Positions 26,453-40,917 of a DNA stretch of 64,000 bases are shown piece after piece. A program made the translations under genes and the position numbers. Position 1 is the stretch's first letter; the number at the start of each line of letters is the position of its first letter. The notes below the pieces were generated by a model. That model searched no databases, had not been told where the DNA came from, and worked only from the letters and a program-made list of their open reading frames with translations. Source of the DNA: Spirochaetia bacterium (lineage in GTDB: Bacteria > Spirochaetota > Spirochaetia > DSM-2461); the NCBI GenBank assembly GCA_963666985.2, contig CAXXIA010000002.1, forward strand, positions 2,016,001-2,080,000. The letters are read 5' to 3'.

Positions 26453-26527
<75 letters not shown>

Positions 26528-26629
26528 GTATTTGCTTGCAATGCAAGTGTTTATTGCTTCTTGAAGAACCGGCGGTTCTCCTGAATATCTACTGTTACGT
26601 CGATTGTTACGTTGAACAGGAGATGGAGA

Positions 26630-27778
26630 ATGAGCCGGTTTCTTTTTTATCACACGTTTCGAAGGAAGAATTTAAAAGGGAAATTTTTTTACTACATTCG
26701 GTTTATCGACTCTGATACAGGCAAAACCGTTAAAACACTATCATCAGGACTCACCAATAAGACACAGGCAATCAGGTGGGCTGAATCGAAACTCAAGGAA
26801 GTTCAGAATGAATTAAACATGGTTACTGATATACCTTTACTCTCTGAGTATGGATCAAACTACTTTTCTATGAACGGTCCATATGAAACCAAGAAAACTC
26901 AGAGAGGTTATTCGGTCGCAAAGGTTTATCTCTACACATGCTCCTGCTATACGCGAAATCATATCATTCCAATCTGGGGGATGTTTCGACTCAATAAGTT
27001 AACGACAGAAATCATCGATCAGAAGCTACTCGAAATCTTTCGATCTGGACGAGTCGCCAGTGATACCGTAAATCGTATTCTAAGAGTTCTCAGGCTTATT
27101 CTCGATGGTGCGGTATCGGATGGATATCTTAACGAAAATCCAGCCGTGAGAGTCAAACAGGTTAAAGTAACCAAGAAAGAACGAGGGGTCTTTACGCAAG
27201 GAGAACTTGTTTATCTCTTCTCTGATCCGCTTATCTGGACAGATATTAGGCATTATACGTTGAATCTCTTAGCGTTTACTTCAGGAATGAGACTCGGTGA
27301 AATCCGTGGTCTGTGCATTGAGAACGTCCATAGTGACTATATTTCGGTTCGTCAGCAGTGGGAGAATGGATACGGACTGAAGCCGCCAAAGGCTAACAGT
27401 ATTCGAGATATAGCAATTCCTCGAATTACATCCGAAGCTCTCCATTACCTAATCAGCTTAACTCGCCCGAGTAGGATTGTATTTTACTCATCTGAAGATG
27501 ATCGAAAACCAATGACAGCAAGCCATATAGTGAAATCATTGTATGAAGCGCTTCAAGGAATAGGTATTACTGAAGATGAACGCAGGAGAAGAAATCTAGT
27601 GTTTCACTCGTGGCGGCATACTCTGAATACAGTTCTTAGGGCGGAGGGTGTTGCTGATGCGAAGATAAGGCAGATTACAGGGCACAGGACAGAAGAGATG
27701 ACAGCTAATTATACTCATTTTCAGGCAGAAGACTTTAAAGATATTAGTGCGTTAACCAGTCGTATTCTCATACCTTAG
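26630..27778 (+). CDS. Tyrosine recombinase/integrase
   Basis: SGMRLGEI (R), PPKA (K), FHSWRH (HxxR), GHRTEEMTANY (H, Y); GGAG RBS before ATG 26630. Confidence 0.93.
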   Translation: MSRFLFYHTFRRKNLKGKFFYYIRFIDSDTGKTVKTLSSGLTNKTQAIRWAESKLKEVQNELNMVTDIPLLSEYGSNYFSMNGPYETKKTQRGYSVAKVYLYTCSCYTRNHIIPIWGMFRLNKLTTEIIDQKLLEIFRSGRVASDTVNRILRVLRLILDGAVSDGYLNENPAVRVKQVKVTKKERGVFTQGELVYLFSDPLIWTDIRHYTLNLLAFTSGMRLGEIRGLCIENVHSDYISVRQQWENGYGLKPPKANSIRDIAIPRITSEALHYLISLTRPSRIVFYSSEDDRKPMTASHIVKSLYEALQGIGITEDERRRRNLVFHSWRHTLNTVLRAEGVADAKIRQITGHRTEEMTANYTHFQAEDFKDISALTSRILIP

Positions 27779-27986
27779 TATCTGTAAAAAACATAAAAAA
27801 CATAAAAACCAATCTCACTTGGAAATATATAAAAACTACTTAATATGCAGTATATATTACATAAACTATATCAATTAGTATTTTTTTAGTTTGATGAAGA
27901 GAAGGGGCATTAGGGGTAGAAAATAGAGACAAGAAATAAAACCTAAGAATTATTAATTTCTAGATTTTTTGGAAAAGTTTATAAAA

Positions 27987-29709
27987 GGGGCTGTCTCATA
28001 AGAGGCGGCCCTTTTTCATGTCTGGAAGAATTCCCTTCTGAATTCAAGGGTGGTAGAATTCTTCATGGACACTAAAAAGAAGGCTACATTCAAAGATTAC
28101 GAAATCAGCCAACAGATGCTCCTGCCTCCAAGTCTCGATGAACTGCTTCCCGCAAACCATATATCCCGCACAATCAACAACTTCATCGACACGATGGATA
28201 CCAGTGAGCTCTTCAACGCCTATCCGGGAGGCGGTGCCAGCAGCTACCACCCAGTGATGATGCTGAAGGTTCTGGTGTTGGCCTACTCGAAACAGCTGTA
28301 TTCCTGTCGTCAAATCGCAGACGCTCTTCGTGAGCAGATATGCTTCATGTGGATCAGTGGTAATAACCGTCCTGATTTCCACACGATAAACAGATTTCGT
28401 AACGGTCCATTGAAGAAGAGCATCGAGAAAATCTTTGCCTCAATGGCCAACAGCCTCATCGAGAGCGGACATGTCCAGATGGAGAACTACTTTCTCGACG
28501 GCACAAAAATCGAATCAGCAGCTAACAAATACACATGGGTATGGGGCCGGGCGACAGACAAGTTCCAGAAGCGCCTGGCCGGCAATATGGATGAGCTTTT
28601 CGAATACATCGACCGCATCAATGAAGAAGAGGATGAGAAGTACGGCGACCATGACCTTCCCCATGTGGATCCTCAAGGCAGGCCGATGTCGGAGATTCTC
28701 GAAGATGCGGTATCCAAGCTCAATGAAGAGCTGCGCAAGGATCGGGAGGAGCGAGAAAAGAAGGAGATTCAACGGAGATTGAATACCGCTAGCAAGGACT
28801 ATCTCCCTCGTGCCAAAAAGTATGAGCAGCAGAAGAGAATCCTCGGCGACCGAAATAGTTACTCGAAAACAGACTATGATGCGACTTTCATGCGGATGAA
28901 AGAAGACTATATGAAAAATGGTCAGCTCAAGCCCGGGTACAACATCCAAATGGGTACTGAGAACCAGTTCATCCTCGGATATAGCATCCACCAGAGTCCC
29001 GGTGACTCCCTGACATTGCCGCTACATATGGAGAAACTGAAAAAGAATCTGAAACGCTATCCGAAAAGAATCATTGCTGATTCAGGATATGGTAGTGAAG
29101 AGAACTACCAGTGGTGTGAGGATCATGGTGTCGAGAAGTACATCAAGTTCAGCTACTTCCACAGGGAGCGGAAACGGAAGTTCAAGAAGCAGATTCATAT
29201 GAAAGAGAACTGGGACTATCGTGCCTCTGATGATACATACCGGTGCCCCAAGGGTCGCCGATTCAAACACGAGGAGACCAGAATCTCGAAAACAGGTTCA
29301 GGATTTCCGACCACTGAAAAAAGGTATACAGGCCCTGGATGCCAAAGGTGTTCTCTCCGAATCCGGTGCTGCAAATACGGAGGCAAAGAGCGCATCCTGA
29401 CGGTTCGTCCAAACCTGGAACGGCATAAGTCTGAAGTGCGCAAGTTGCTGACTTCAGAGGAAGGACTGAGAATGCGCTCTCTCAGGCCGATTGAAGTCGA
29501 ATCTGTATTCGGAGATATCAAGACGAATATGGGATTTCGGAGATTCCGAACCAGGGGATTGAAGATGGTCAGTACTGAATGGGGACTGTTGAGTATGGCT
29601 CATAACATGAGGAAGCTACAGAAACGATAAGGGGATGGGAGGGAACCTCCCGTCTTCGGAGGTCAACCAAATTTTAAAAGGGGCTGTCTCAAACTAATGA
29701 GACAGCCCC
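27987..29709 (+). mobile_element. IS1182-family insertion sequence
   Basis: Terminal IRs GGGGCTGTCTCAT(A/T)AG (15/16) at 27987-28002 and 29694-29709; each end forms a hairpin; no clear target duplication. Confidence 0.85.
28065..29630 (+). CDS. IS1182-family transposase
   Basis: GGASSYHPVMMLK, PDFHTINRFR, DGTKIESAAN, SKTDYDATFMRMKED, ADSGYGSE, IEVESVFGDIK. Confidence 0.93.
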   Translation: MDTKKKATFKDYEISQQMLLPPSLDELLPANHISRTINNFIDTMDTSELFNAYPGGGASSYHPVMMLKVLVLAYSKQLYSCRQIADALREQICFMWISGNNRPDFHTINRFRNGPLKKSIEKIFASMANSLIESGHVQMENYFLDGTKIESAANKYTWVWGRATDKFQKRLAGNMDELFEYIDRINEEEDEKYGDHDLPHVDPQGRPMSEILEDAVSKLNEELRKDREEREKKEIQRRLNTASKDYLPRAKKYEQQKRILGDRNSYSKTDYDATFMRMKEDYMKNGQLKPGYNIQMGTENQFILGYSIHQSPGDSLTLPLHMEKLKKNLKRYPKRIIADSGYGSEENYQWCEDHGVEKYIKFSYFHRERKRKFKKQIHMKENWDYRASDDTYRCPKGRRFKHEETRISKTGSGFPTTEKRYTGPGCQRCSLRIRCCKYGGKERILTVRPNLERHKSEVRKLLTSEEGLRMRSLRPIEVESVFGDIKTNMGFRRFRTRGLKMVSTEWGLLSMAHNMRKLQKR

Positions 29710-29741
29710 TTTTTTCTATCTAATGATTCTCTAGGAGCTTG

Positions 29742-30255
29742 TTAATCATCAATTTGAACAATATCAACAGTACCAACAATTCTGATATCACCCAGATAAT
29801 CATCTAAATCTGTTGCATAGTAACTGTATTTTTTGCCTAGAGCATCAACGGATAGTGTGTAACTTCCTAATCCACTATTATCACTATTGCTAATAGTAAT
29901 TGTTCCACTCATCGCTACATATGCTATTTCAGTCGAGTCATCTCCAATTTCGATATGTGAATACCCATTCTCAGTATATCTATGCATAATAATATAGACT
30001 CCATCAGGCGGGACCGTCCAAGAGTCATCTCCATCACGATAGAAATCCAGACTTACAATCATTGGTTCTGAGGATGTTCCAATATCAAATGAATGTGTAG
30101 GAACCGTTACTTCATTCCCCTCATCATCAGTCCAGCCTGTTGTAGCTGTTCCTCCGCTATGATAACCCGTACCGTCTGTGTAACTTGATAGGTCGAAAAC
30201 TTCAAAATCATCTTGATTCTGACTACACCCAGCGATTAGTAAGACAATAGTAAAA
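29742..30255 (-). pseudogene. Lipoprotein gene whose start was removed by IS3
   Basis: ...FTIVLLIAGC lipobox begins exactly at the IS3 boundary (30255/30256); acidic beta-rich body. Confidence 0.65.
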
Positions 30256-30283
30256 TGGAATTCCCAGACTTCTATAGACACCT

Positions 30284-31144
30284 CTAGCTTGCAATAGAAC
30301 CCTTTTCAAATTCAACCGGAGAGATCCCGCCAAGATGCTTGTGGCGACGCTTCCGGTTGTAAAATGCTTCAATATAATCGAACACATCAGACCGTGCTTC
30401 ATCCCTTGTTCGATATGTCTTCCGGCGAATCCGTTCCTTCTTCAAACTACCAAAGAATGATTCCATGGCTGCATTGTCCCAGCAGTTTCCACGACGGCTC
30501 ATACTTCTCTTCAGTCCGTTGTCACGACAGAATCTAATCCAGTCACCGCTGTCAAATTGGCCGCCCTGATCGGAATGGATAAGGACTTTGTTTTTCGGGC
30601 GTCTCTTCCAAACAGCTGTCAGTAAGGCCTGGATAACCAGATCACGATGAAGCGTGTTCTGCATGGACCAGCCGATGATTCTCCTGGAATAAAGATCCAT
30701 GACAACTGCGAGATACAGCCAACCTTCATGAGTTCGAATATAGGTAATATCCGTTGTCCACGCAGTATCGGGTTCTTCTACATTAAAGTCCTGCTGGAGA
30801 TGGTTCGGGGCAGCCTGGGACGGTTTTCCATACTTGAATCGACGCATCTTGAAGCCGACCATCGCCCTGATACCATGCTCTCGCATGATTCTGGCTACTC
30901 GATGGACGCTGCAGGATTCTCCGTCTTCCATCAAATCCTCATGGATTCGTGGACTTCCGTAGACCTGATCGCTTTCTTCGTAGAAGTGGCGAATCTTCTT
31001 CAACAACCGAATGTCTTCAATCTTTCTCTCTGATTGAGGTTTTCTCAACCATGCATAGAATCCGCTTCGATTGACATCGAGAACCCGGCACATAGTCTTC
31101 ACTCTGAATTCAGCCCTGTAGTTTTTGATGAAGGCATATCTTAC
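30284..31144 (-). CDS. IS3 transposase OrfB (DDE), expressed as OrfAB through a -1 frameshift
   Basis: WTTDITYI, IHSDQG, CWDNAAMESFF; frame open up to the A7G slippery site at 31180-31173. Confidence 0.92.
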   Translation of the reverse strand, partial: VRYAFIKNYRAEFRVKTMCRVLDVNRSGFYAWLRKPQSERKIEDIRLLKKIRHFYEESDQVYGSPRIHEDLMEDGESCSVHRVARIMREHGIRAMVGFKMRRFKYGKPSQAAPNHLQQDFNVEEPDTAWTTDITYIRTHEGWLYLAVVMDLYSRRIIGWSMQNTLHRDLVIQALLTAVWKRRPKNKVLIHSDQGGQFDSGDWIRFCRDNGLKRSMSRRGNCWDNAAMESFFGSLKKERIRRKTYRTRDEARSDVFDYIEAFYNRKRRHKHLGGISPVEFEKGSIAS

Positions 31145-31428
31145 TCGGACTGACTCGCGAAGTATGCCGCGGCTTTTTTTAAGATATCTCGCTCTTCCTG
31201 CACCCGCCGCAGCTCTGCTTTCAGCCTGGCATTCTCGACTTCAAGCTCCTTATTTGCTTTTGCCGATTCTGGTGCTTTTGGATTTCGAGAATCGGCCTTC
31301 AGCCACTTATAGAGGCTATGGGTTGAGACTCCTATACGCTCAGAGACTTCCTTGATGGAGTAGCCCCGCTCAACAACCTGGCCGACTGCTTCTGCCTTGA
31401 ATTCGTCCGAATATCGCGGACTTCCCAT
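31141..31428 (-). CDS. IS3 transposase OrfA (HTH + leucine zipper)
   Basis: RYSDEFKAEAV...ENARLKAELRRVQEERDILKKAAAYFA; AGGAAGGAG RBS region. Confidence 0.92.
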   Translation of the reverse strand: MGSPRYSDEFKAEAVGQVVERGYSIKEVSERIGVSTHSLYKWLKADSRNPKAPESAKANKELEVENARLKAELRRVQEERDILKKAAAYFASQSE

Positions 31429-31487
31429 GATGTACACTCCTTCCTCATTTTGAGTTTAGCAGTGTCTATCAAAAGCTGGGAATTCCA

Positions 31488-32511
31488 TCTTGCCGACAAA
31501 ATTATCGAATCCCTCTCGCTTATCCTCATCTATATATATCTTTTCATTTACTACCTGTCGGAGCATCACAACAGCATATTCATGCATATGAGCATTATTT
31601 TGATCGATTCGCCATCGGTTTTTATCCCAATAATACGTGTTTCCTGAATCTGAAGCACTTTTGAAGATATTTCCATATCTTATTAACAAACGATCAGTTA
31701 GGCCAAAATCATTCCATTCCAATTTTGAACATTTTTCCAGCTTATCGGCCAGCTTTGAATCATAGTATTTCTGGGCACTTTTCAAGACGTCCATGAACTC
31801 ATTCTGAGCTAATGGTTCTTTTATACTGGAGTTCCTTATACTAAGTTCCGTTAGTACATGTTCAGGTCTATAACCCCTTCCATACATAGCTGTGGCTTGA
31901 CCGAATAAAGAATTATTCCGATTCCCTACTACCAGAGAGTAATTGCGAGTTTGTATATCTGAGCTTGGAACGACTTCAGGAGCAACTATTGAATCGATCT
32001 TTTCAGTAATACAGATTCCTTCATTTCGTATTATCTGCACATTAGGATTTCCAAAAAAGAAGCGGGAGACGTCTTTACAACTAGCATCGAAGTATGGCCG
32101 CAAATGAACAAGACGCCTTAAATACTCTTCAACTGTTTGCTTCTCTGTAATTTCGCAATCTAGATCGAAGAACACATGAAACCTTTCTCGTGGCTCTTCA
32201 CCATCATGCTTTACTTTCCCATGATTCCGAGATGTCGCTATCCAGAATCGATAGGCAGCAAATTCCTGCATGAATTGCTCGATAGTAATGATATCTTTCT
32301 CTTCGATACGACTATCATTATCGATATCTGCATAGAGCCATGATGTGGATTGAAAATTCTCTTTGCATCTCTCACCATCTGCCATCTTGCATAGCATATG
32401 GTCTTTGGTTACAGCTTCACGGAAGGATTCAACTTCATCGATTTTAACAGGAATCTGATAGACCTTGTTTTTTGGGTCTCCGACTGTATCACTTCTGTAA
32501 ATTATCGCCAT
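31488..32511 (-). pseudogene. Phage/plasmid P4-type primase (AEP + PriCT-1 + start of D5_N), truncated by IS3 before the helicase domain
   Basis: YADIDND (DxD), ATSRNH, RFHVFF, YFDASCKDVSRFFFG; GNRNNSLF...EPL PriCT-like; WNDFGLTDRL...YYWD..RW D5_N-like; no Walker A before the IS end. Confidence 0.75.
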
Positions 32512-32695
32512 GCTGCTTACACTCCTGTGTACTTTCCAATTGTTTCATTGTTTCATCGATGAGTCCCCGTACGATATGTGATAACGGGCAACGTTTTGAT
32601 TCTGCGAGTCTCTTCAAAAACTCGATTTGATACCAATCTATGACCAATTTTAGGTAATCAGGATCATAAACTTGACTGCTTGGATGAATTACCAT
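32489..32695 (-). CDS. Small putative ribbon-helix-helix DNA-binding protein
   Basis: AGGAG RBS; strand-helix-helix pattern LKLVID...FLKRLAE...LSHIVRGLID. Confidence 0.5.
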   Translation of the reverse strand: MVIHPSSQVYDPDYLKLVIDWYQIEFLKRLAESKRCPLSHIVRGLIDETMKQLESTQECKQHGDNLQK

Positions 32696-32870
32696 TTTCT
32701 ACTCCTTTGATCTGTTTAGTTCGAAGTGATTGAAGAAGAGCGATACCGATATATTCGCTTCGGTTCATCTTCAACTCGGATCGTCTCAACTCGATTTTTC
32801 GAGCAAGAGACGGGTCTAGGGTGAAACTGAAAAGTCGTTTCTTCCGCTTTATGGAATTGCCCATAGACAC
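32664..32870 (-). CDS. Small CopG/RHH-like DNA-binding protein
   Basis: KRLFSFTLDPSLARKIE...MNRSEYIGIAL; AAGGAG RBS (the start may be ATG 32864). Confidence 0.6.
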   Translation of the reverse strand: MSMGNSIKRKKRLFSFTLDPSLARKIELRRSELKMNRSEYIGIALLQSLRTKQIKGVENGNSSKQSSL

Positions 32871-33310
32871 TCCTTTAGTGGTCCTCAGAAACGAGGATTG
32901 AGATGATATAGCTCGCCTACAGCGAACTTTTTTAATGGGGGGGGCAGAATTGCTTGGAATAGCTGTATTACAGCCTATGAAAATAAAAACTCGCGGAGAT
33001 CTCCACGAGTTGTGTGTATTATACCCTACTCGCGGTGTTAACCCAAAACTTAGTGTTGAAAAGGGTCAAAGTTGTTATAGATAAGCAAAAAAATCTTGCG
33101 ACTAAGACGGCGGTATTACAGACCTGACTTTGTGTTTTTCCCCAATGGGGCGGGTCTCTTGCTATAATGATTGTTACTGAAATTGTTACTTGAGTGTTAC
33201 GTTTACTTTCAAAATACTTTGATAATCGGTTATTATGCTGTTTGCTTTATTTCTTTTATCCGTATATAATTAAAGAAAAAGAGCGTAATCGAAAAACAGT
33301 AGAAATTCGA

Positions 33311-33402
<92 letters not shown>

Positions 33403-33527
33403 ATTTAGACTTACTGGAGTTGAAGGGGTGAGCCGCTGAGCAATAGCGAAGAAGAGGTGCCAGGATGGCACCGAAAGGCGAAACCAGCGGCCTGGAGGAA
33501 TCCGACACGATGTCGGATGATGGAAGG

Positions 33528-33589
33528 CGAGTCCAGTATCGCCCAACAAAAGAGGGGGCTGTCCCATAAGGGGCGGCTCCTCTTTTGTT
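33528..33589. repeat. Third copy of the tRNA 3' end (18 bp) plus a second copy of the terminator hairpin (likely also terminates tetR)
   Basis: CGAGTCCAGTATCGCCCA at 33528-33545, then AACAAAAGAGGGGGCTGTCCC-ATAA-GGGGCGGCTCCTCTTTTGTT. Confidence 0.85.
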
Positions 33590-33606: not shown

Positions 33607-34209
33607 TTATTTTTTGTCGCCGTTCGGACAGCGAAGGAGGCTTTTCGCCAGCAGCCGAATATACTCCTTACGGGTTTCTTCGTTGTGTAAATCCACGGAG
33701 GCAAATTGATCATAGAGCCTCGGAGCGAAGATAAGCGGAAGAAGCGTGGCCGAGATTATCTGGATGATGGCGAGCTGAAGCGTTTTTTTATCGAGTTCCA
33801 CCCCCCTGCCGGTTAAATCTTCTTCAAGATTCTTTAAGAAAAGACTGAAGGCATCCATGGACGGTCCGCTGTAATCTCCGTTGAATACCCCTGAGAAGTG
33901 GGCACGGGTAATTCCGGGAAAGTTAACAACACCTTCCATTAAGTGATTCAGGATGACGGTAAGTCTGTCGATCGGTTCGGATTCGTCCGATTCCCGGAAA
34001 TCGGACCAGTCAAAGGCATTCTTGAGTGTAATGTCGATAACTTTCTTCACAAGGTTGTCTTTACTTCGGAAGTAGTAATTGATGGCCGCGCTGTTTACAC
34101 CCGCTCTCTCAGCGACTTTCCGGATGGTCATCGCTTCGAGTCCTTCTTCATTGATGCAGTCGATTGCCGCCAGGATTATTTTTTCTTCCGCGGAAGTTTC
34201 GGAATTCAT
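33607..34209 (-). CDS. TetR/AcrR family transcriptional regulator
   Basis: EKIILAAIDCINEEGLEAMTIRKVAERAGVNSAAINYYFRSKDNL HTH. Confidence 0.93.
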   Translation of the reverse strand: MNSETSAEEKIILAAIDCINEEGLEAMTIRKVAERAGVNSAAINYYFRSKDNLVKKVIDITLKNAFDWSDFRESDESEPIDRLTVILNHLMEGVVNFPGITRAHFSGVFNGDYSGPSMDAFSLFLKNLEEDLTGRGVELDKKTLQLAIIQIISATLLPLIFAPRLYDQFASVDLHNEETRKEYIRLLAKSLLRCPNGDKK

Positions 34210-34248
34210 GATTTCCCCATTTGATTGAAACGGCTGTTTGATTCGGAT

Positions 34249-35166
34249 TTATCCTACATTTCTCCGGGAATCTTTTTCAAGCGGAGCGAATATTTCCTTT
34301 TCTTGAATGCCGCACATCCTTTCGGAACGTTCCCAGAGTCTGCACGCCGCGTCCCGATTATAGGAAACACGGCCGGATCGGATCGGTTTTCCTTCCAGCC
34401 AGTATGTTCCGTTTCCAAGAGTCTTAATCGGTGCGGTAATCAAATGAACGATGGTTTTGGCAGCATGATCCGAACCGACACCATGCTTTCGCCGCTTCGA
34501 CCAGAACCAGGATTCGAATCCGAGAGTGTTTTTTTGGCCGAGCCCTGTGTTTACCAAACCCGGATCGGCGGCGAAGGCGCGAACGGAACCGTGTTTCCCC
34601 AAACGGCGGGCCAGTTCGTAGGTAAAAATTACATTGGCGAGCTTGGATTGGCGATAAGCCTTGAGAAGGTGGTATCCCTTTCTTAAGTGGAGATCGTCCC
34701 AGTGGATTCGACCGGAGCGGTGCGATCCGGAGCTTACCGTTACGATCCGTGCTTCGGGGGCGGATTGAAGGAGCGGCAGAAGAAGCCGTGTCAGCAGGAA
34801 GGGTGCCAGATGATTCACGGCGAATTGGAGTTCGTAGCCCTCCGCGGTTGTTGTGTACCAGCTTGCGACCGTTGCGGCGTTGTTGACCAATCCCGCAAGA
34901 CCCTCGCATCCTCGGGAGGCCGTGAGATTTTCTATTGAAGCGGCCAATTCCCGAATATTCCTCTGCACCGAGAGATCCGCCGTAAGATATTCCACGGCGG
35001 AATTCGGGGATTCGGTTTGAATCAATGTTTTCGCGATTCGGCATTTCTCTTCCGACCGCCCGACTCCGACGACAAAGAAATTCGATGCGGCCAGGTTTCT
35101 CGCCGCCGCCAGTCCGATTCCGGAAGTCGCGCCCGTTATAACGACGGCTTTTTTCTCCGATTTCAT
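34249..35166 (-). CDS. SDR oxidoreductase (retinol-dehydrogenase-like subgroup)
   Basis: TGATSGIG, LVNNA, FAVNHLAPFLLT, YRQSKLAN. Confidence 0.9.
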   Translation of the reverse strand: MKSEKKAVVITGATSGIGLAAARNLAASNFFVVGVGRSEEKCRIAKTLIQTESPNSAVEYLTADLSVQRNIRELAASIENLTASRGCEGLAGLVNNAATVASWYTTTAEGYELQFAVNHLAPFLLTRLLLPLLQSAPEARIVTVSSGSHRSGRIHWDDLHLRKGYHLLKAYRQSKLANVIFTYELARRLGKHGSVRAFAADPGLVNTGLGQKNTLGFESWFWSKRRKHGVGSDHAAKTIVHLITAPIKTLGNGTYWLEGKPIRSGRVSYNRDAACRLWERSERMCGIQEKEIFAPLEKDSRRNVG

Positions 35167-35212
35167 TCTTTCCTCCTCACAAGGTTTTTTTTGTTCGAAG
35201 TAACTTTATAAT

Positions 35213-35279
35213 TAAAACGTACGATTAGTCCATATGATTAAAACACGTGTTTGACGTCTCGGGTAATAAGGCTTATCGT
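35213..35279. promoter_or_regulatory. Two palindromic TetR-like operators overlapping a sigma70 promoter in the divergent intergenic region
   Basis: TAAAACGTACGATTAG (35213-35228), TAAAACACGTGTTTGA (35239-35254); TTGACG-17-TATCGT (35251-35279); a related site TGAAACGGCTGTTTGA lies at 34226-34241 before tetR. Confidence 0.6.
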
Positions 35280-35313
35280 GAATCGATTATAAGGGGACCG
35301 GGAGGATTGAGGG

Positions 35314-36129
35314 ATGGAGAGTCGGGTTATGATTACGGGAGGCGCGGGTGCTCTGGGACGCGCGTTCGCCGCGGAATGCGCGGAACGGGGCTGGGATTTA
35401 ATTCTGACGGATATCGACGGGAACGCTTTGGCCGATACGGCCGCCGGATTATCCCGCGCATACGGAATCCGCGTGGATGTTTTTCCCTGCGATCTTATGA
35501 AGGAAGAGTCCAGGAATACTCTTTATTCCGATCTCGCGGATTCGGCATTGAAAATTCGGATGCTGATTAATGTGGCGGGTCTGGATTATGAAGGCGGGGT
35601 TTTGGAAAGGACACGGGAAGAGCTTCGAAAGATCGTTCGTCTGAATGTCGAGGCGACTTTGGAAACAACTCGCGCCGTATTGGAACTGAACGATTCGGAG
35701 CGGTCCTTTCGGCTCATTACCGTCTCGAGTCTTTCGGCCTATTACCCCATGCCGCTTAAAGCGACATACGCGGCGTCCAAGGCGTTTCTGCTGCAGTTTT
35801 CATTGGCCGTTCGAGAAGAACTTCGGAGTTCCGGGGGTTCGGCAACGGCGCTTTGTCCTTCGGGACTTCCTACACGGGAAGAAGCAATCGATGCCATCGA
35901 CGCTCAGGGCTTTATGGGACGGATAACGGCGATGAATATCGGAAAAGTGGCGGCTCTGACAATCGACGGAGCGCTTAAGGGACGGGCCGTTGTAATACCC
36001 GGTGCCGTTAATCGGGTTCTTCGGTTTCTCGGTTCGATCGTACCTCTTCCGATTCAAACCAGACTCCTTGCGGCCCGATGGGAAAAAGCGCGCGGCAGAT
36101 TCCGGCCGGAACCCGCCATTGGTGAATGA
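35314..36129 (+). CDS. SDR oxidoreductase (DltE/17beta-HSD-like subgroup)
   Basis: TGGAGALG, LINVAG, VSS, YAASK. Confidence 0.88.
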   Translation: MESRVMITGGAGALGRAFAAECAERGWDLILTDIDGNALADTAAGLSRAYGIRVDVFPCDLMKEESRNTLYSDLADSALKIRMLINVAGLDYEGGVLERTREELRKIVRLNVEATLETTRAVLELNDSERSFRLITVSSLSAYYPMPLKATYAASKAFLLQFSLAVREELRSSGGSATALCPSGLPTREEAIDAIDAQGFMGRITAMNIGKVAALTIDGALKGRAVVIPGAVNRVLRFLGSIVPLPIQTRLLAARWEKARGRFRPEPAIGE

Positions 36130-36228
36130 ATAAATCTTTAACCGAAACCCCCTGTCGACGGATTGAGAAAATCGGGCCTGCGATGTAATACATATGAAGA
36201 GTGTTTTATCGCTACAGGAGGCCCCAAT

Positions 36229-37446
36229 TTGTCAAATATCCCGATTTTTGAAAAATGCCGGAATTTTGAAGCAGCACAGCAGGCTCGGGAAGGCGGGTAT
36301 TATCCGTACTTTCGCCCCATAGAAAGAGCTGAAGGAACAAAAGTCATTATCGAAGGCCGTGAGCTGCTGATGTTCGGTTCGAACAACTACCTCGGTCTGG
36401 CTCAGGATGAACGGGTTCAGGAAGCCGCCGTTAAAGCGATTCACGATTACGGAACCAGCTGTTCCGGTTCAAGGTTCATGAACGGGACTCTAGATCTTCA
36501 TGAGAAGCTGGAGAATAAACTGGCGGAATTTACCGGTCAGGAAGCCGCCCTTTGTCATACCACCGGATATCAAACCAATCTCGGTGCCATCAGTGCGCTG
36601 GTCGGACGGAAGGATCACGTGATATCGGACAAATTTAACCATGCTTCCATCATGGACGGTATCTTTCTGGCCCGCGGTTTTTCGGGCGGGGTGAATCTTC
36701 ATCGCTACAAGCATAACGATATGGACGACCTCGAATCGGTATTGAAAAAGATACCTGCGGACGAGGGAAAAATTGTGGTGACCGACGGCGTGTTCTCCAT
36801 GGAAGGAGACATCGTAAAGCTGCCGGAGCTGAAGCTGCTTTGCGAGAAGTACAATGCCGCGGTTTATTTGGATGAAGCTCATGCCGTCGGCGTTGTAGGG
36901 GCCACGGGAAGGGGAACTTCGGAACATTTCGGTTCTCCGGATTTGGTGGATTTGGTGATGTGCACCTTCAGCAAGTCTTTCGGTTCCATCGGAGGATTTG
37001 TCGCCGGACCGGCGAAGGTTATCGATTATGTCAAACATTTTTCCCGGCCGCTGATATTCAGTGCGTCCATGCCTCCGGCCAATGTGGCCAGCGTTCTCAA
37101 AACTCTGGAAATTATCATGGAAGAACCTCAAAGGGTGCGCCGGCTGCAGGAAATCGCCGATTATATGCTCAAAGGATTTGCCTCACGGGGTTTTGATATC
37201 GGCCGCGCGGAAACGCCGATTATTCCCATTATTACCGGTTCTCAGGAGAAAACCATCGCTTACTGGACGGCTCTCTTTAATCGGGGGATTTACGTTAATC
37301 CGGTTCTGCCTCCGGCGGTTCCCCCGAACCGCTGTTTGATTCGCACCAGCTATATGGCGATTCATCAGCAGGCCGATTTGGATTATTTCCTTGATGCGGC
37401 CACCGAAGAAGCGGACAAACTTGATATTCCCCGAGCGGCGGCCTGA
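36229..37446 (+). CDS. spt: PLP-dependent alpha-oxoamine synthase, serine palmitoyltransferase-like
   Basis: AGGAGG RBS and TTG start; YPYFRPIE, FGSNNYLGL, GTSCSGSRFMNGTLDLH, NHAS, DEAH, TFSKS (PLP Lys), IFSAS, VNPVLPPAVP...IR follow the Bacteroidota Spt pattern as I recall it. Confidence 0.75.
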   Translation: MSNIPIFEKCRNFEAAQQAREGGYYPYFRPIERAEGTKVIIEGRELLMFGSNNYLGLAQDERVQEAAVKAIHDYGTSCSGSRFMNGTLDLHEKLENKLAEFTGQEAALCHTTGYQTNLGAISALVGRKDHVISDKFNHASIMDGIFLARGFSGGVNLHRYKHNDMDDLESVLKKIPADEGKIVVTDGVFSMEGDIVKLPELKLLCEKYNAAVYLDEAHAVGVVGATGRGTSEHFGSPDLVDLVMCTFSKSFGSIGGFVAGPAKVIDYVKHFSRPLIFSASMPPANVASVLKTLEIIMEEPQRVRRLQEIADYMLKGFASRGFDIGRAETPIIPIITGSQEKTIAYWTALFNRGIYVNPVLPPAVPPNRCLIRTSYMAIHQQADLDYFLDAATEEADKLDIPRAAA

Positions 37447-38267
37447 TGACGAAGAGACCTTCTTTTCGATTGGCGATTCTGACAGGCGGTTCCAGCGGCA
37501 TCGGACTGGCCGTTGCCGAACGTCTTGTCGGTGAAGGCACCTCGGTGGTTCTGATGGCAAGACGCCCGGAGCTTCTCATGCAGGCCGCCGAAAGATTGGA
37601 GTTTAAAAAACGGGACAAAGCTGAAATCCACACCGTTTCTCTGGACGTTTCGGATGCTTCCGCGGTGCGCCAGGGGGTCACCCAAATTCTTCAAAACATC
37701 GGAACGCCCGATTTGGTTTATTGCGGGGCGGGAATGACTCATACCAACCATTTCGCCGAGATTACGCGGGAACAGTTTCAGGCGATTCTGACAACGAATG
37801 TCGGAGGTATTTGGAACGTGCTGTCGTCGGTTCTTCCGAGTATGAGGGAGAGGGGAGAGGGGACCGTCGTGACGGTTTCTTCCGTATCGGGCTTGGTGGG
37901 AACCTACGGGTATTCCGCCTATGCCGCTTCGAAGTTCGGCGTTATGGGTTTGTCTCAGGTTTTGAGAAACGAGCTCAAACCCGACGGGATTCGGGTGAAG
38001 GTGCTCTGTCCGCCGGATACCAACACCCCGCAGCTGGAGGAAGAGCGGCTCACGATGCCGGAAGAAACCCGGAAAATCAACGGGATGGCCGGATGCAAGG
38101 AGCCCGAGGAGATCGCCGAGGCGCTGATGAAAGGCTTACGAAAGCGACGGTTCGTTATCCTTCCGGGATTTATGAGCAAGGTTACCTGGTATCTCTACCG
38201 GTGGTTTCCCGGATTTGTTCATCTGATTATCGATTCGGATGTCCGGAGGGCGCGAAAGGCGAAGTGA
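37446..38267 (+). CDS. 3-ketodihydrosphingosine reductase-like SDR (KDSR/FVT1/Tsc10 subgroup)
   Basis: TGGSSGIG, VSS, GYSAYAASKF, and PPDTNTPQLEEE...PEETR motif of KDSR-like SDRs; start overlaps the spt stop (TGATG). Confidence 0.7.
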   Translation: MTKRPSFRLAILTGGSSGIGLAVAERLVGEGTSVVLMARRPELLMQAAERLEFKKRDKAEIHTVSLDVSDASAVRQGVTQILQNIGTPDLVYCGAGMTHTNHFAEITREQFQAILTTNVGGIWNVLSSVLPSMRERGEGTVVTVSSVSGLVGTYGYSAYAASKFGVMGLSQVLRNELKPDGIRVKVLCPPDTNTPQLEEERLTMPEETRKINGMAGCKEPEEIAEALMKGLRKRRFVILPGFMSKVTWYLYRWFPGFVHLIIDSDVRRARKAK

Positions 38268-39200: not shown

Positions 39201-40835
39201 CTAATATCCGTCCGAGGCGGCTCTGTTCATATCCTTTTTGTAGAGTTCGTTATAAACAAATCCCCGGTTTCTAAGAGTGTCTTTCACCGGCTGAGTGAAG
39301 GGCATTTGCCTCCAGAAAATACCTCGGACTTCCTTGTCCAGTTTCTGGACGCCGTCCACTTCTTTGGTTATCCAGAGGACATAATCCTCAAGGAATCGCA
39401 GGCGGACGTCTCCGCGGAGTTTTTTGGAGCTGAACCATTGATAGTAGTGGCCGGTCAGGCCTTCTTCCATCCAATAGTGGGCCGCTTTTTCCTTGGCGAC
39501 GTTCCAGCGTAAATCGCCGAGAGCATAAATCACGGCCAGCTTGAGGTTCTTCGGGAACATGGGAATGGCGATACGGCCGCGGCTGGTTCCTCTGTTGAAT
39601 CGTTCGAAGGGTTCCCAGCAGACTCCCTTATCTCCGTAGCAGGGAATAATAATGGTATGCGGAACGATACGATTCGTTTTCTGGCGGAAACTCCTGCGGA
39701 AGACTTCCGGATCGATTTGTTCGATTTGATCCATAAACCGGATGATGTTTTCGCGCGTTCCGATCAGATCGAGATTCGGGAAAAAGAAGTTTTTCATCAG
39801 GAAGGGAAGGTGATTCCCCTGCCTGCCGACGCACATTTTAGCCATTTGGCGGATGCCGTCGAGTTCCGCTTCGAGAACGCTTCGATCGGCTTTGCTCAAT
39901 CCGCCCATACTTTCGATTTTGTTTCCCAGTTTGCCGAGTTCGGCGTTTGCGTCTTTAAATTTTCCGATATTGTTCGAAATATCGCGGTCCATCTTGCTGA
40001 GTTTCCGCAGAACATCGTTGATTCTGCTCAACGACGCTTTCTGATCCGGTGAAAAAGCTTTTTGAATACCGGGAATGGTCGGATGGGGATCGTGCCGGGA
40101 AATGGCGGCGGCGAGGGATGAAAGTTCGTTTTCAAGTCCGCTTCTGCTTGTCATGAGTTTCTGCAGGAACGACAGATTGGCTTCCATGGATCCTTGAGCT
40201 TTATCAAGCTGAGCTTTGGCTTTGGAAGCGGCGCTGAGCTTTGATATTTTCATCTCATCCGTAGCCAGAGGGTTCACTTGACCGGCGAGGACCAGATCCA
40301 TCCATTCGTCGATGTAATGAACCGGTTCGTCCAGTTCTTTTCCGGAGACGATTTTGGAGATCATCCGTCGCTGTTCCCCGGAAACAAGCGTGGGAAGGAT
40401 GTAACCGTAGCGCAGGGCCCATCGTTTTTCCATTACCGGTCCGTGGTAATGGGCCGATAAACTGCGGGCAAGATCCCAATAGGCCGGAATGAGTCTTTGG
40501 CGGTACACGCCTTTGTCTTTTGGATCTTCCGCTTTGAGGTATTTTTGAAGAAGTGTGTGGAATCTCTGGGCGGATTCGCCTTCTCCGGTAAGAATCTTGG
40601 AATAGTAATCCTTTTCAAAAAAGACGGGATCGGAATCTTGTTCCCATTTTGCAACGGAACTGAAATTCTGTTTGGAAATGTTTTCCGTTTGAATTGTTTG
40701 ATCGTCTTTGATTACGGGAGCCGGTTCGTCGAAGAGATCCGAAAAGTCCGGGACGGATGCAGGAGACGTGTCGTCACCCAGGAGATCAGCAATCTCCGGG
40801 TCGATGTCTCCTGCAGCCACAAAATTATCCGACAT
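39201..40835 (-). CDS. Conserved hypothetical protein with central coiled coil
   Basis: Long clean ORF. The start is placed at ATG 40835 because the track's start (40889) lies inside tRNA-Ala. Confidence 0.75.
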   Translation of the reverse strand: MSDNFVAAGDIDPEIADLLGDDTSPASVPDFSDLFDEPAPVIKDDQTIQTENISKQNFSSVAKWEQDSDPVFFEKDYYSKILTGEGESAQRFHTLLQKYLKAEDPKDKGVYRQRLIPAYWDLARSLSAHYHGPVMEKRWALRYGYILPTLVSGEQRRMISKIVSGKELDEPVHYIDEWMDLVLAGQVNPLATDEMKISKLSAASKAKAQLDKAQGSMEANLSFLQKLMTSRSGLENELSSLAAAISRHDPHPTIPGIQKAFSPDQKASLSRINDVLRKLSKMDRDISNNIGKFKDANAELGKLGNKIESMGGLSKADRSVLEAELDGIRQMAKMCVGRQGNHLPFLMKNFFFPNLDLIGTRENIIRFMDQIEQIDPEVFRRSFRQKTNRIVPHTIIIPCYGDKGVCWEPFERFNRGTSRGRIAIPMFPKNLKLAVIYALGDLRWNVAKEKAAHYWMEEGLTGHYYQWFSSKKLRGDVRLRFLEDYVLWITKEVDGVQKLDKEVRGIFWRQMPFTQPVKDTLRNRGFVYNELYKKDMNRAASDGY

Positions 40836-40843
40836 ATCCGATT

Positions 40844-40917
40844 TGGAGGTGAAGGGAGTCGAACCCATGACCTCGTGAATGCCATTCACGCGCTCTAGCC
40901 AACTGAGCTACACCCCC
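40844..40917 (-). tRNA. tRNA-Ala(GGC), CCA not encoded
   Basis: GGGGGTG/CACCTCC+A acceptor with G3:U70; anticodon arm CGTGA-ATGGCAT-TCACG; GTTCGACTC T-loop. Confidence 0.95.

Follow-up and report, generated by a model that had tools for sequence, protein, structure and literature searches.

Several described systems bear on a two-gene locus that we analyzed in a 64,000-nucleotide stretch of DNA (hereafter the window) from a Spirochaetia bacterium (GenBank assembly GCA_963666985.2, contig CAXXIA010000002.1, positions 2,016,001 to 2,080,000 of the forward strand), where a putative serine palmitoyltransferase gene (spt) overlaps a gene for a short-chain dehydrogenase/reductase (SDR) of the Tsc10/KDSR family. 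In eukaryotes, serine palmitoyltransferase and KDSR (yeast Tsc10, human FVT-1/KDSR, Cryptococcus Tsc10 of PDB entry 8jat) carry out the same two reactions that we infer here, and the eukaryotic reductases have a catalytic triad and a lid motif in common with the SDR of the window. The locus differs from the eukaryotic route in its single-gene bacterial Spt, its anchor-free reductase and its operon layout; furthermore, a Lag1/TLC ceramide synthase (PF03798) was found in none of the five genomes searched and in none of 14 control genomes, a blank obtained without a positive control.

Among bacteria, Bacteroides thetaiotaomicron provides the same chemistry in the same order as proposed here, with a CFB-type Spt (BT_0870) followed by the SDR KdsR (BT_0972; NF049977), whose reduction of 3-ketosphinganine was demonstrated both in vitro and within E. 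coli (PMC9278070). However, BT_0972 represents a different SDR subfamily and does not form a cluster with spt, and CerR is found in Bacteroides as well (PMC9278070), whereas here a Tsc10-family enzyme appears to be coupled to spt and CerR was not found. The Caulobacter-type route consists of Spt, bCerS and CerR (Stankeviciute 2022; PMC11087976); our genome likewise encodes Spt and a bCerS-like GNAT protein, but no CerR orthologue was found in it, and in 18 other Spt genomes of the class a CerR-like gene takes the place of KDSR. CerR is periplasmic and the order of the bacterial ceramide steps is debated (PMC11087976), both step orders having already been drawn for bacteria (PMC10865984). In the sga cluster of Pseudomonas fluorescens MYb115 (the polyketide synthase SgaA, the alpha-oxoamine synthase SgaB, and SgaC), an alpha-oxoamine synthase (AOS) is clustered with an SDR likened to eukaryotic KDSR; its product differs in having a polyketide-derived very long chain, the activity of SgaC is a proposed one, and SgaC is likened to KDSR by description only (PMC12134224). 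According to the same source, the KDSR step is unusual among bacteria other than Bacteroides and Prevotella. Sulfonolipid synthesis by CapA, CapB (SulA, CFAT) and CapC (PMC13692747, PMC11211663) follows a parallel logic, an AOS and then an SDR, but with cysteate as the substrate, an AOS of a different clade and a different SDR.

Spt-like proteins have been reported in 38 phyla, with the suggestion that non-homologous proteins replace bCerS or CerR (PMC11334938); the string “Spirochaet” is absent from the main text of that article and from its preprint, although its supplement may still list the phylum. An Asgard association was reported for the whole of eukaryotic sphingolipid metabolism, with KDSR unnamed in the text seen (PMC12872458), and further literature on the topic is available (PMC9246714, PMC11052126, bioRxiv 10.64898/2026.04.12.717747). 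Among the matches listed by our literature search, which mostly did not extend to subscription journals, we found no report of sphingolipid synthesis in spirochaetes and no description of a Tsc10-family reductase coupled to spt. Thus, Spt-then-KDSR chemistry is known in bacteria, and what would be new here, judging from sequence, is the phylum and the pairing of enzymes.

An earlier note on this DNA, made from the letters alone, had described two open reading frames joined by a TGATG overlap and had quoted motifs from both products; all of these are present. The first frame, spt, occupies positions 36229-37446 of the window on the forward strand and encodes a 405-residue AOS dependent on pyridoxal 5'-phosphate (PLP); the second, a kdsR-like gene, occupies 37446-38267 on the same strand and encodes a classical SDR of 273 residues. 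The stop codon TGA (37444-37446) and the start codon ATG (37446-37448) share one base in the sequence TGATG (37444-37448, forward strand). We place the start of spt at the TTG at 36229, rather than at the alternative formal start at 36163, because a Shine-Dalgarno sequence AGGAGG (36216-36221, forward strand) lies 7 nt upstream and because the alignment with the Sphingobacterium enzyme (SmSPT, see below) begins at residue 5. No Shine-Dalgarno sequence was found before the ATG at 37446. This and the overlap fit the translational coupling that the earlier note had claimed, without proving it. The overlap by itself is an ordinary operon feature, and it is the conserved adjacency of the two genes, described below, that exceeds chance.

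The synthase was assigned to the group of Bacteroidota (CFB)-type serine palmitoyltransferases by NCBIfam and PDB searches, a tree and a residue table. Its fold family is PF00155, and its best match among 15 NCBIfam families was NF047600 (Bacteroidota-type Spt), with 512.8 bits against 379 for BioF and 369 for Kbl. The best PDB match was Sphingobacterium SPT (8guh, SmSPT) with 410 bits, followed by Kbl (at most 246 bits), CFAT (218), BioF (192) and HemA (178). Residues H138, D215, H218, T246 and the PLP lysine K249 align with H138, D210, H213, T241 and K244 of SmSPT, and the active-site residues described for the latter (PMC10196870), namely Y27, F28, N52, Y54, G80, S81, F83, H138, S185, D210, H213, T241, K244 and F272, are all kept; the two deviations are M271 to Ile and A79 to Ser. 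At the position of the functionally important Lys280 of CFAT the synthase has Ala279. The motifs YPYFRPIE, GTSCSGSRFMNGTLDLH, TFSKS and IFSAS were all found in it. Among its homologues, WP_020613271.1 (P0324), which carries a Sediminispirochaeta label, is 68% identical to it. In a FastTree phylogeny of 58 sequences it falls into a clade of 26 sequences from the class (support 1.0) that is separate from Kbl, BioF, HemA and CFAT, as its assignment to Spt in the earlier note would predict; the deeper placement of this clade, with a single Bacteroidota row, is weak (0.68). Spt and CFAT are the only two AOS family members in the genome, in which no Kbl, BioF or HemA was found, nor bioD, nor tdh above the cut-off. 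The protein is most likely a CFB-type Spt, predicted to condense L-serine with a long-chain acyl-thioester.

The SDR carries the glycine-rich motif TGGSSGIG, R39 and the catalytic triad S146/Y159/K163; the first and the last match the classical-SDR features given in PMC6148460, and R39 suggests the use of NADPH. GYSAYAASKF is also present, as is the lid motif PPDTxTP...E...PEET, which reads PPDTNTPQLEEERLTMPEET and for which the earlier note had miscounted the spacing by one residue. This motif is nearly identical to that of mussel KDSR, with two deviations, R201 and M204. Membership in the Tsc10/KDSR family was established with the region following the catalytic lysine, because this region discriminates the family and whole-protein searches do not. 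When a profile of this region (A2, built from 47 spirochaete sequences) was run against the PDB, a single one of 177,635 sequences matched, Cryptococcus Tsc10 (8jat, E 1.3e-11); the same profile gave 48-72 bits to all 11 eukaryotic KDSRs and at most 31 bits to all 22 other SDRs listed. Conversely, a profile of the 11 eukaryotic KDSRs ranked the SDR first among 36 matches in the genome (204 bits, against 126). Pairwise identity to these 11 proteins is 25-36%.

The AlphaFold model of the SDR (pLDDT 95.8) shows a Rossmann fold from the outset, with strand 1 at residue 9, and there is no transmembrane anchor, the peak 19-residue hydropathy being 1.26 versus approximately 2.6 in two eukaryotic KDSRs; the anchor of yeast Tsc10 is reported to be dispensable for activity (PMC6148460). 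One near Atlas cluster, among many tied SDR clusters, is named “3-dehydrosphinganine reductase family protein”, which we take as a lead only. In the CDD the Tsc10/KDSR family corresponds to cd08939, and it is named in InterPro as well. The Bacteroides KdsR type (NF049977, cut-off 400 bits) was not among the top 25 NCBIfam families of the SDR, no BT_0972-type SDR was matched in the genome at E 1e-55 or better, and none of the 301 genomes of the class surveyed below exceeded the cut-off. When contigs were searched with the single SDR sequence, the 80 loci retrieved were generic SDRs (27-36% identity) without a close relative among them, and these were used for outgroups only. From the family assignment, the most likely activity is to reduce 3-ketosphinganine with the use of NADPH.

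In the SDR tree, the window gene nests within a spirochaete clade (support 98/96), and for this reason we rejected the idea that it was recently acquired from a eukaryote. The KDSRs of eukaryotes fall together with cyanobacterial and Chloroflexota members (93/99), apart from the spirochaete clade. The subgroup named in the earlier note is confirmed, and its term “eukaryote-type” is best read as a family label only: the Tsc10/KDSR family is widespread in bacteria. The family forms one side of a branch in two trees with long outgroup branches (SH-aLRT 94 in one and 62/92 in the other).

The earlier note had also remarked that no bCerS-like gene is adjacent to the pair. This holds within the window, yet approximately 84 kb from spt on the same contig there is a bCerS-like GNAT gene (C2:1967322-1968437). 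Neither E. coli YghO nor two spirochaete homologues matched any Pfam or NCBIfam family at the thresholds used, and the protein of this genome gave only a weak GNAT match; for this reason, we used E. coli BL21 genes and home-made profiles to look for bCerS and CerR. We take YghO to be the bCerS homologue and the epimerase encoded beside E. coli spt to be CerR, in both cases by position beside spt, and the CerR references were picked in the same way. In ten Bacteroidota-search loci with an Spt-like gene, a YghO-like neighbor was present in all ten and a CerR-like neighbor in four. The GNAT protein of our genome is 31% identical to E. coli BL21 YghO over 379 aa (E 2e-45) and reaches 437 bits with a profile of 18 sequences, this same protein being one of them; its own role in ceramide synthesis is uncertain. 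Our searches brought up no CerR orthologue in the genome, which is 93% complete: the best score was 122 bits, compared with leave-one-out scores of 185-416 bits for eight Spt-adjacent CerR-like proteins, and the other CerR searches likewise gave no match. No acyl carrier protein or acyl-CoA synthetase gene was found beside spt.

The host is a spirochaete, as the earlier note had thought probable, because the genome holds three FlaA genes above the Pfam cut-off (none in the 14 control genomes), most named homologues of both spt and the SDR carry Spirochaetia labels, and the nearest Atlas clusters of one window protein are mostly from Spirochaetota. We surveyed 301 genomes of the class, each at least 85% complete, scoring the top candidates per genome at fixed thresholds (Spt 1e-100, KDSR 1e-60, bCerS 1e-30, CerR 1e-55). 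Spt-like genes were identified in 95 genomes, KDSR-like genes in 70 and both in 52; the CerR-like profile matched in 38. In 38 genomes from 15 families, that is 38 of the 70 reductase carriers, spt and kdsr are adjacent (same strand, less than 500 bp apart). The order is kdsr-spt in 36 of these pairs and spt-kdsr in two, including this genome; same-genus genomes G010 and G002 likewise have the order spt-kdsr. The 95 Spt genomes comprise 51 with KDSR only, 18 with CerR-like only, one with both (G052) and 25 with neither, meaning that neither was found at the fixed thresholds among the top candidates.

A bCerS-like gene is present in 45 of the 52 genomes with both Spt and KDSR. Seven genomes with an adjacent kdsr-spt pair (G029, G063, G088, G047, G096, G118, G137) gave no bCerS-like match with the 18-sequence profile at E 1e-10, two of them being single-contig assemblies that are 99-100% complete; therefore, the reductase there cannot depend on bCerS. 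Among the scanned neighbors in these genomes we recognized no candidate acyltransferase except a hexapeptide-repeat protein near spt in G047. In G052, G171 and G183 a bCerS-like gene, kdsr and spt follow one another in a three-gene run, and in G078, G025 and G290 the same Spt clade is found beside bCerS-like and CerR-like genes. In six genomes (G179, G209, G167, G228, G259, G241) a KDSR-like SDR lies directly 5' of the bCerS-like gene. Next to the run in G052 (L140:2536-8444) we noticed a divergent MlaE/ABC/MlaD lipid transporter. In a small-genome family (f13), a BT_0972-like SDR (218 bits, below the cut-off) lies directly 5' of the Spt-like gene (locus L165 in G152, and G269:C55:29819-31803). 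The place beside the same Spt is thus taken by one of three unrelated reductases, two of which are members of, or similar to, families reported to act in sphingolipid reduction.

Among the 150 representatives listed, a KDSR-like domain is fused to an AOS in P0157 (744 aa, with approximately 80 unassigned residues between them) and to an acyl-AMP ligase in P0259, which carries a Chloroflexota label; in P0215 it is fused to an extended SDR distantly like CerR. Separately, five genomes contain beta-branching cassettes (L176 in G008, L177 in G005, L178 in G179, L179 in G167, L126 in G209) encoding FabD, a ketosynthase, FabG, an HMG-CoA synthase-like protein, two enoyl-CoA hydratases and a FabL-like protein. 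These are headed by a bCerS-like and/or a KDSR-like gene and end in a distinct AOS, the G209 contig being without this end; their products may be methyl-branched sphingoid-like bases. No such cassette is present in this genome.

Taken together, we think it probable that the pair is an operon of two genes whose products carry out the first two steps of sphingoid-base synthesis. A soluble Spt would use PLP to condense L-serine with a long-chain acyl-CoA or acyl-ACP, yielding 3-ketosphinganine; the Tsc10-family SDR, co-translated and cytoplasmic, would reduce the 3-keto group of the still-free base with NADPH to sphinganine; and the bCerS-like GNAT protein encoded elsewhere on the contig would probably N-acylate the latter to dihydroceramide. 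The Tsc10-family enzyme would then occupy the slot held by CerR in Caulobacter-type bacteria. Since the genome has a bCerS-like GNAT gene, a hybrid route (Spt-KDSR-bCerS) is likely here. The earlier note had opposed a bacterial order (Spt, bCerS, CerR) to a eukaryote-like one at this locus. Its family calls hold and its reading is supported overall, with the conserved adjacency and the near-exclusion of CerR adding support; the contrast itself was overstated, given the precedents of BT_0972 and, as a proposed KDSR, P. fluorescens SgaC, and the GNAT gene of this genome.

Several observations weigh against this reading. The score of the synthase lies below the NF047600 equivalog cut-off of 640 bits, so that it is filed as Spt-like; this cut-off is narrow, being reached by none of 31 genomes of the phylum Bacteroidota (best 517) and by the B. 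thetaiotaomicron control alone. First-shell residues are reported not to set substrate specificity in the AOS family (PMC13692747), and SmSPT itself takes Ala and Gly with low efficiency (PMC10196870). As for the SDR, Met204 stands where 90% of 70 homologues have Lys; Tsc10 was absent from the top 60 PDB matches of the single sequence and came sixth in a whole-protein profile search of the PDB; in the fold search many SDRs tie at Z 30-32, with 17-beta-HSD13 and FabG at the top and 8jat not among the rows listed; and the branch support of 62/92 for the family is weak. In the survey, a KDSR-like gene occurs without a close Spt in 18 of the 301 genomes, and the co-occurrence counts include kin and are not independent, so that P values overstate the association. 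A KDSR-like gene also occurs in Nostoc, one species of which is reported to lack sphingolipid synthesis (PMC8895605). Finally, the bCerS-like protein of this genome sits on a long branch, and 15 of its 31 closest relatives in the class (hand count) are in genomes without a close Spt.

Apart from the pathway proposed above, the same genome contains a capnine-type sulfonolipid operon (L175:10141-16518; G000:C2:2828140-2834517) encoding an SDR, cysD, cysN, a cysteate synthase (TIGR03844, 461 bits versus a cut-off of 325) and the second AOS, a CFAT, which scores 347 bits to PDB entry 28eh against 209 to SPT, groups with CFAT and has its Lys280. The operon is kept in all four same-genus genomes checked, its SDR in three of the four. 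The organism may thus make both sphingolipids and sulfonolipids.

Of the alternatives, the main one keeps the enzymes of the proposed pathway and changes their order: bCerS would acylate 3-ketosphinganine first, and the SDR would reduce 3-keto-ceramide as a cytoplasmic stand-in for CerR. Caulobacter without CerR accumulates oxidized ceramide, which indicates that bCerS accepts the unreduced base (PMC11087976), and both the frequency of bCerS-like genes among the Spt and KDSR carriers and the six loci with the SDR directly before a bCerS-like gene agree with this order. The mutual exclusion of KDSR and CerR points to a shared slot and cannot separate the two orders. Characterized Tsc10/KDSR members, however, reduce the free base (PMC6148460), and the SDR begins at its Rossmann fold, whereas CerR is periplasmic. 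Because of this family substrate, the tie to spt in 38 genomes and the seven bCerS-less genomes, we favor reduction of the free base and consider acylation before reduction unlikely. It is also conceivable that the product is a non-canonical amino alcohol, with a synthase that prefers an unusual acyl chain, or else Ala or Gly (giving 1-deoxy bases), and an SDR that reduces whatever is formed. The sub-threshold Spt score, the identity of approximately 50% to Spt-like proteins of the phylum Bacteroidota and the side activities of SmSPT leave room for this, 1-deoxyceramides have been discussed for anoxic waters (PMC11334938), and in the beta-branching clusters a different AOS is served by the KDSR-like SDR family too. 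Nevertheless, the serine-pocket residues match those of SmSPT and the same Spt clade adjoins bCerS-like and CerR-like genes in three genomes, and we give this alternative little credence.

Two further explanations would remove the pair from sphingolipid synthesis. According to one of them, the synthase replaces BioF or Kbl and the SDR acts as a general ketoreductase on lipids or steroids, in line with the lack of a detected BioF or Kbl gene beside the two AOS genes, with the label 8-amino-7-oxononanoate synthase given by JGI to many homologues and with the top fold matches of the SDR. The 513 bits to Spt exceed the scores to BioF and Kbl by a wide span and the clades are separate, neither bioD nor an above-threshold tdh was found in the genome, and spt has as its partner one or another of three reductases, all linked to sphingolipid synthesis; this explanation is very improbable. 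The other, that the pair consists of a cysteate acyltransferase and a 3-ketocapnine reductase, draws on the capnine-type operon and on the use of yeast Tsc10 as a positive control in 3-ketocapnine reductase assays (PMC11211663), so that moonlighting of the SDR is conceivable. But the cysteate slot is taken by the CFAT paralogue, which has its own operon and its own SDR and thereby removes the cysteate alternative for the window synthase, whose scores are reversed (410 bits SPT, 218 CFAT) and which does not have the CFAT lysine. A sulfonolipid role for the pair is accordingly the least credible of all.

Immediately upstream of the pair, a co-directional SDR gene (35314-36129, forward strand) is separated from spt by 99 bp; its product is outside the KDSR family (15 bits on the KDSR C-terminal profile) and it is not a conserved neighbor; it may be co-transcribed with spt, and we did not count it in the pathway. 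It belongs to a group at 33607-36129 with a TetR regulator and a retinol-dehydrogenase-like SDR on the minus strand, none of which is kept beside spt in the relatives seen. A scan for promoters and terminators gave chance-level results, and an Rfam search returned three tRNAs and nothing else. A small island integrated in a tRNA-Val gene (26453-33545) has a GC content of 0.39-0.49, exact 53-bp repeats at 26473 and 33311 with a third copy of 18 bp at 33528, and encodes a tyrosine integrase, a DUF772/DDE transposase, an IS3-like element and a PriCT-1 primase remnant. The end of this island, at 33363, is 2.9 kb away from the pair, and the GC content of 36001-38000 (0.51-0.54) is like that of the contig (0.51); horizontal transfer of the pair with the island was rejected on these grounds. 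Downstream, a 562-residue protein (39201-40889) matched no Pfam or NCBIfam family, and its nearest Atlas clusters are unnamed and mostly from Spirochaetota.

A wider proposal can be put forward tentatively, and as a whole we consider it less likely than not: that Spirochaetia are a large unrecognized group of sphingolipid producers (Spt-like genes in 95 of 301 genomes), most of them using an Spt-coupled Tsc10-family reductase in a true eukaryote-order route; that three unrelated enzymes serve interchangeably in the reductase slot across this one class; that in at least seven bCerS-less genomes the base either stays free or receives its acyl group from an enzyme still to be discovered; and that eukaryotic KDSR descended from this bacterial family. 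If the assignment of the gene pair is true, a phylum would be added to the sphingolipid producers, and a bacterial reductase of the yeast Tsc10/human KDSR family would be genetically tied to Spt. With two soluble proteins, the debated order of the bacterial ceramide steps could be tested in E. coli, and an anchor-free soluble Tsc10-family enzyme could ease structural work on the lid and the substrate site. Surveys that demand Spt, bCerS and CerR together would overlook these organisms. The finding also hints at the membrane content of some spirochaetes, several of which are without lipopolysaccharide. Finally, it bears on whether the bacterial and eukaryotic pathways converged beyond Spt: if eukaryotic KDSR descends from the bacterial family, the view that the first step alone is shared would be weakened.

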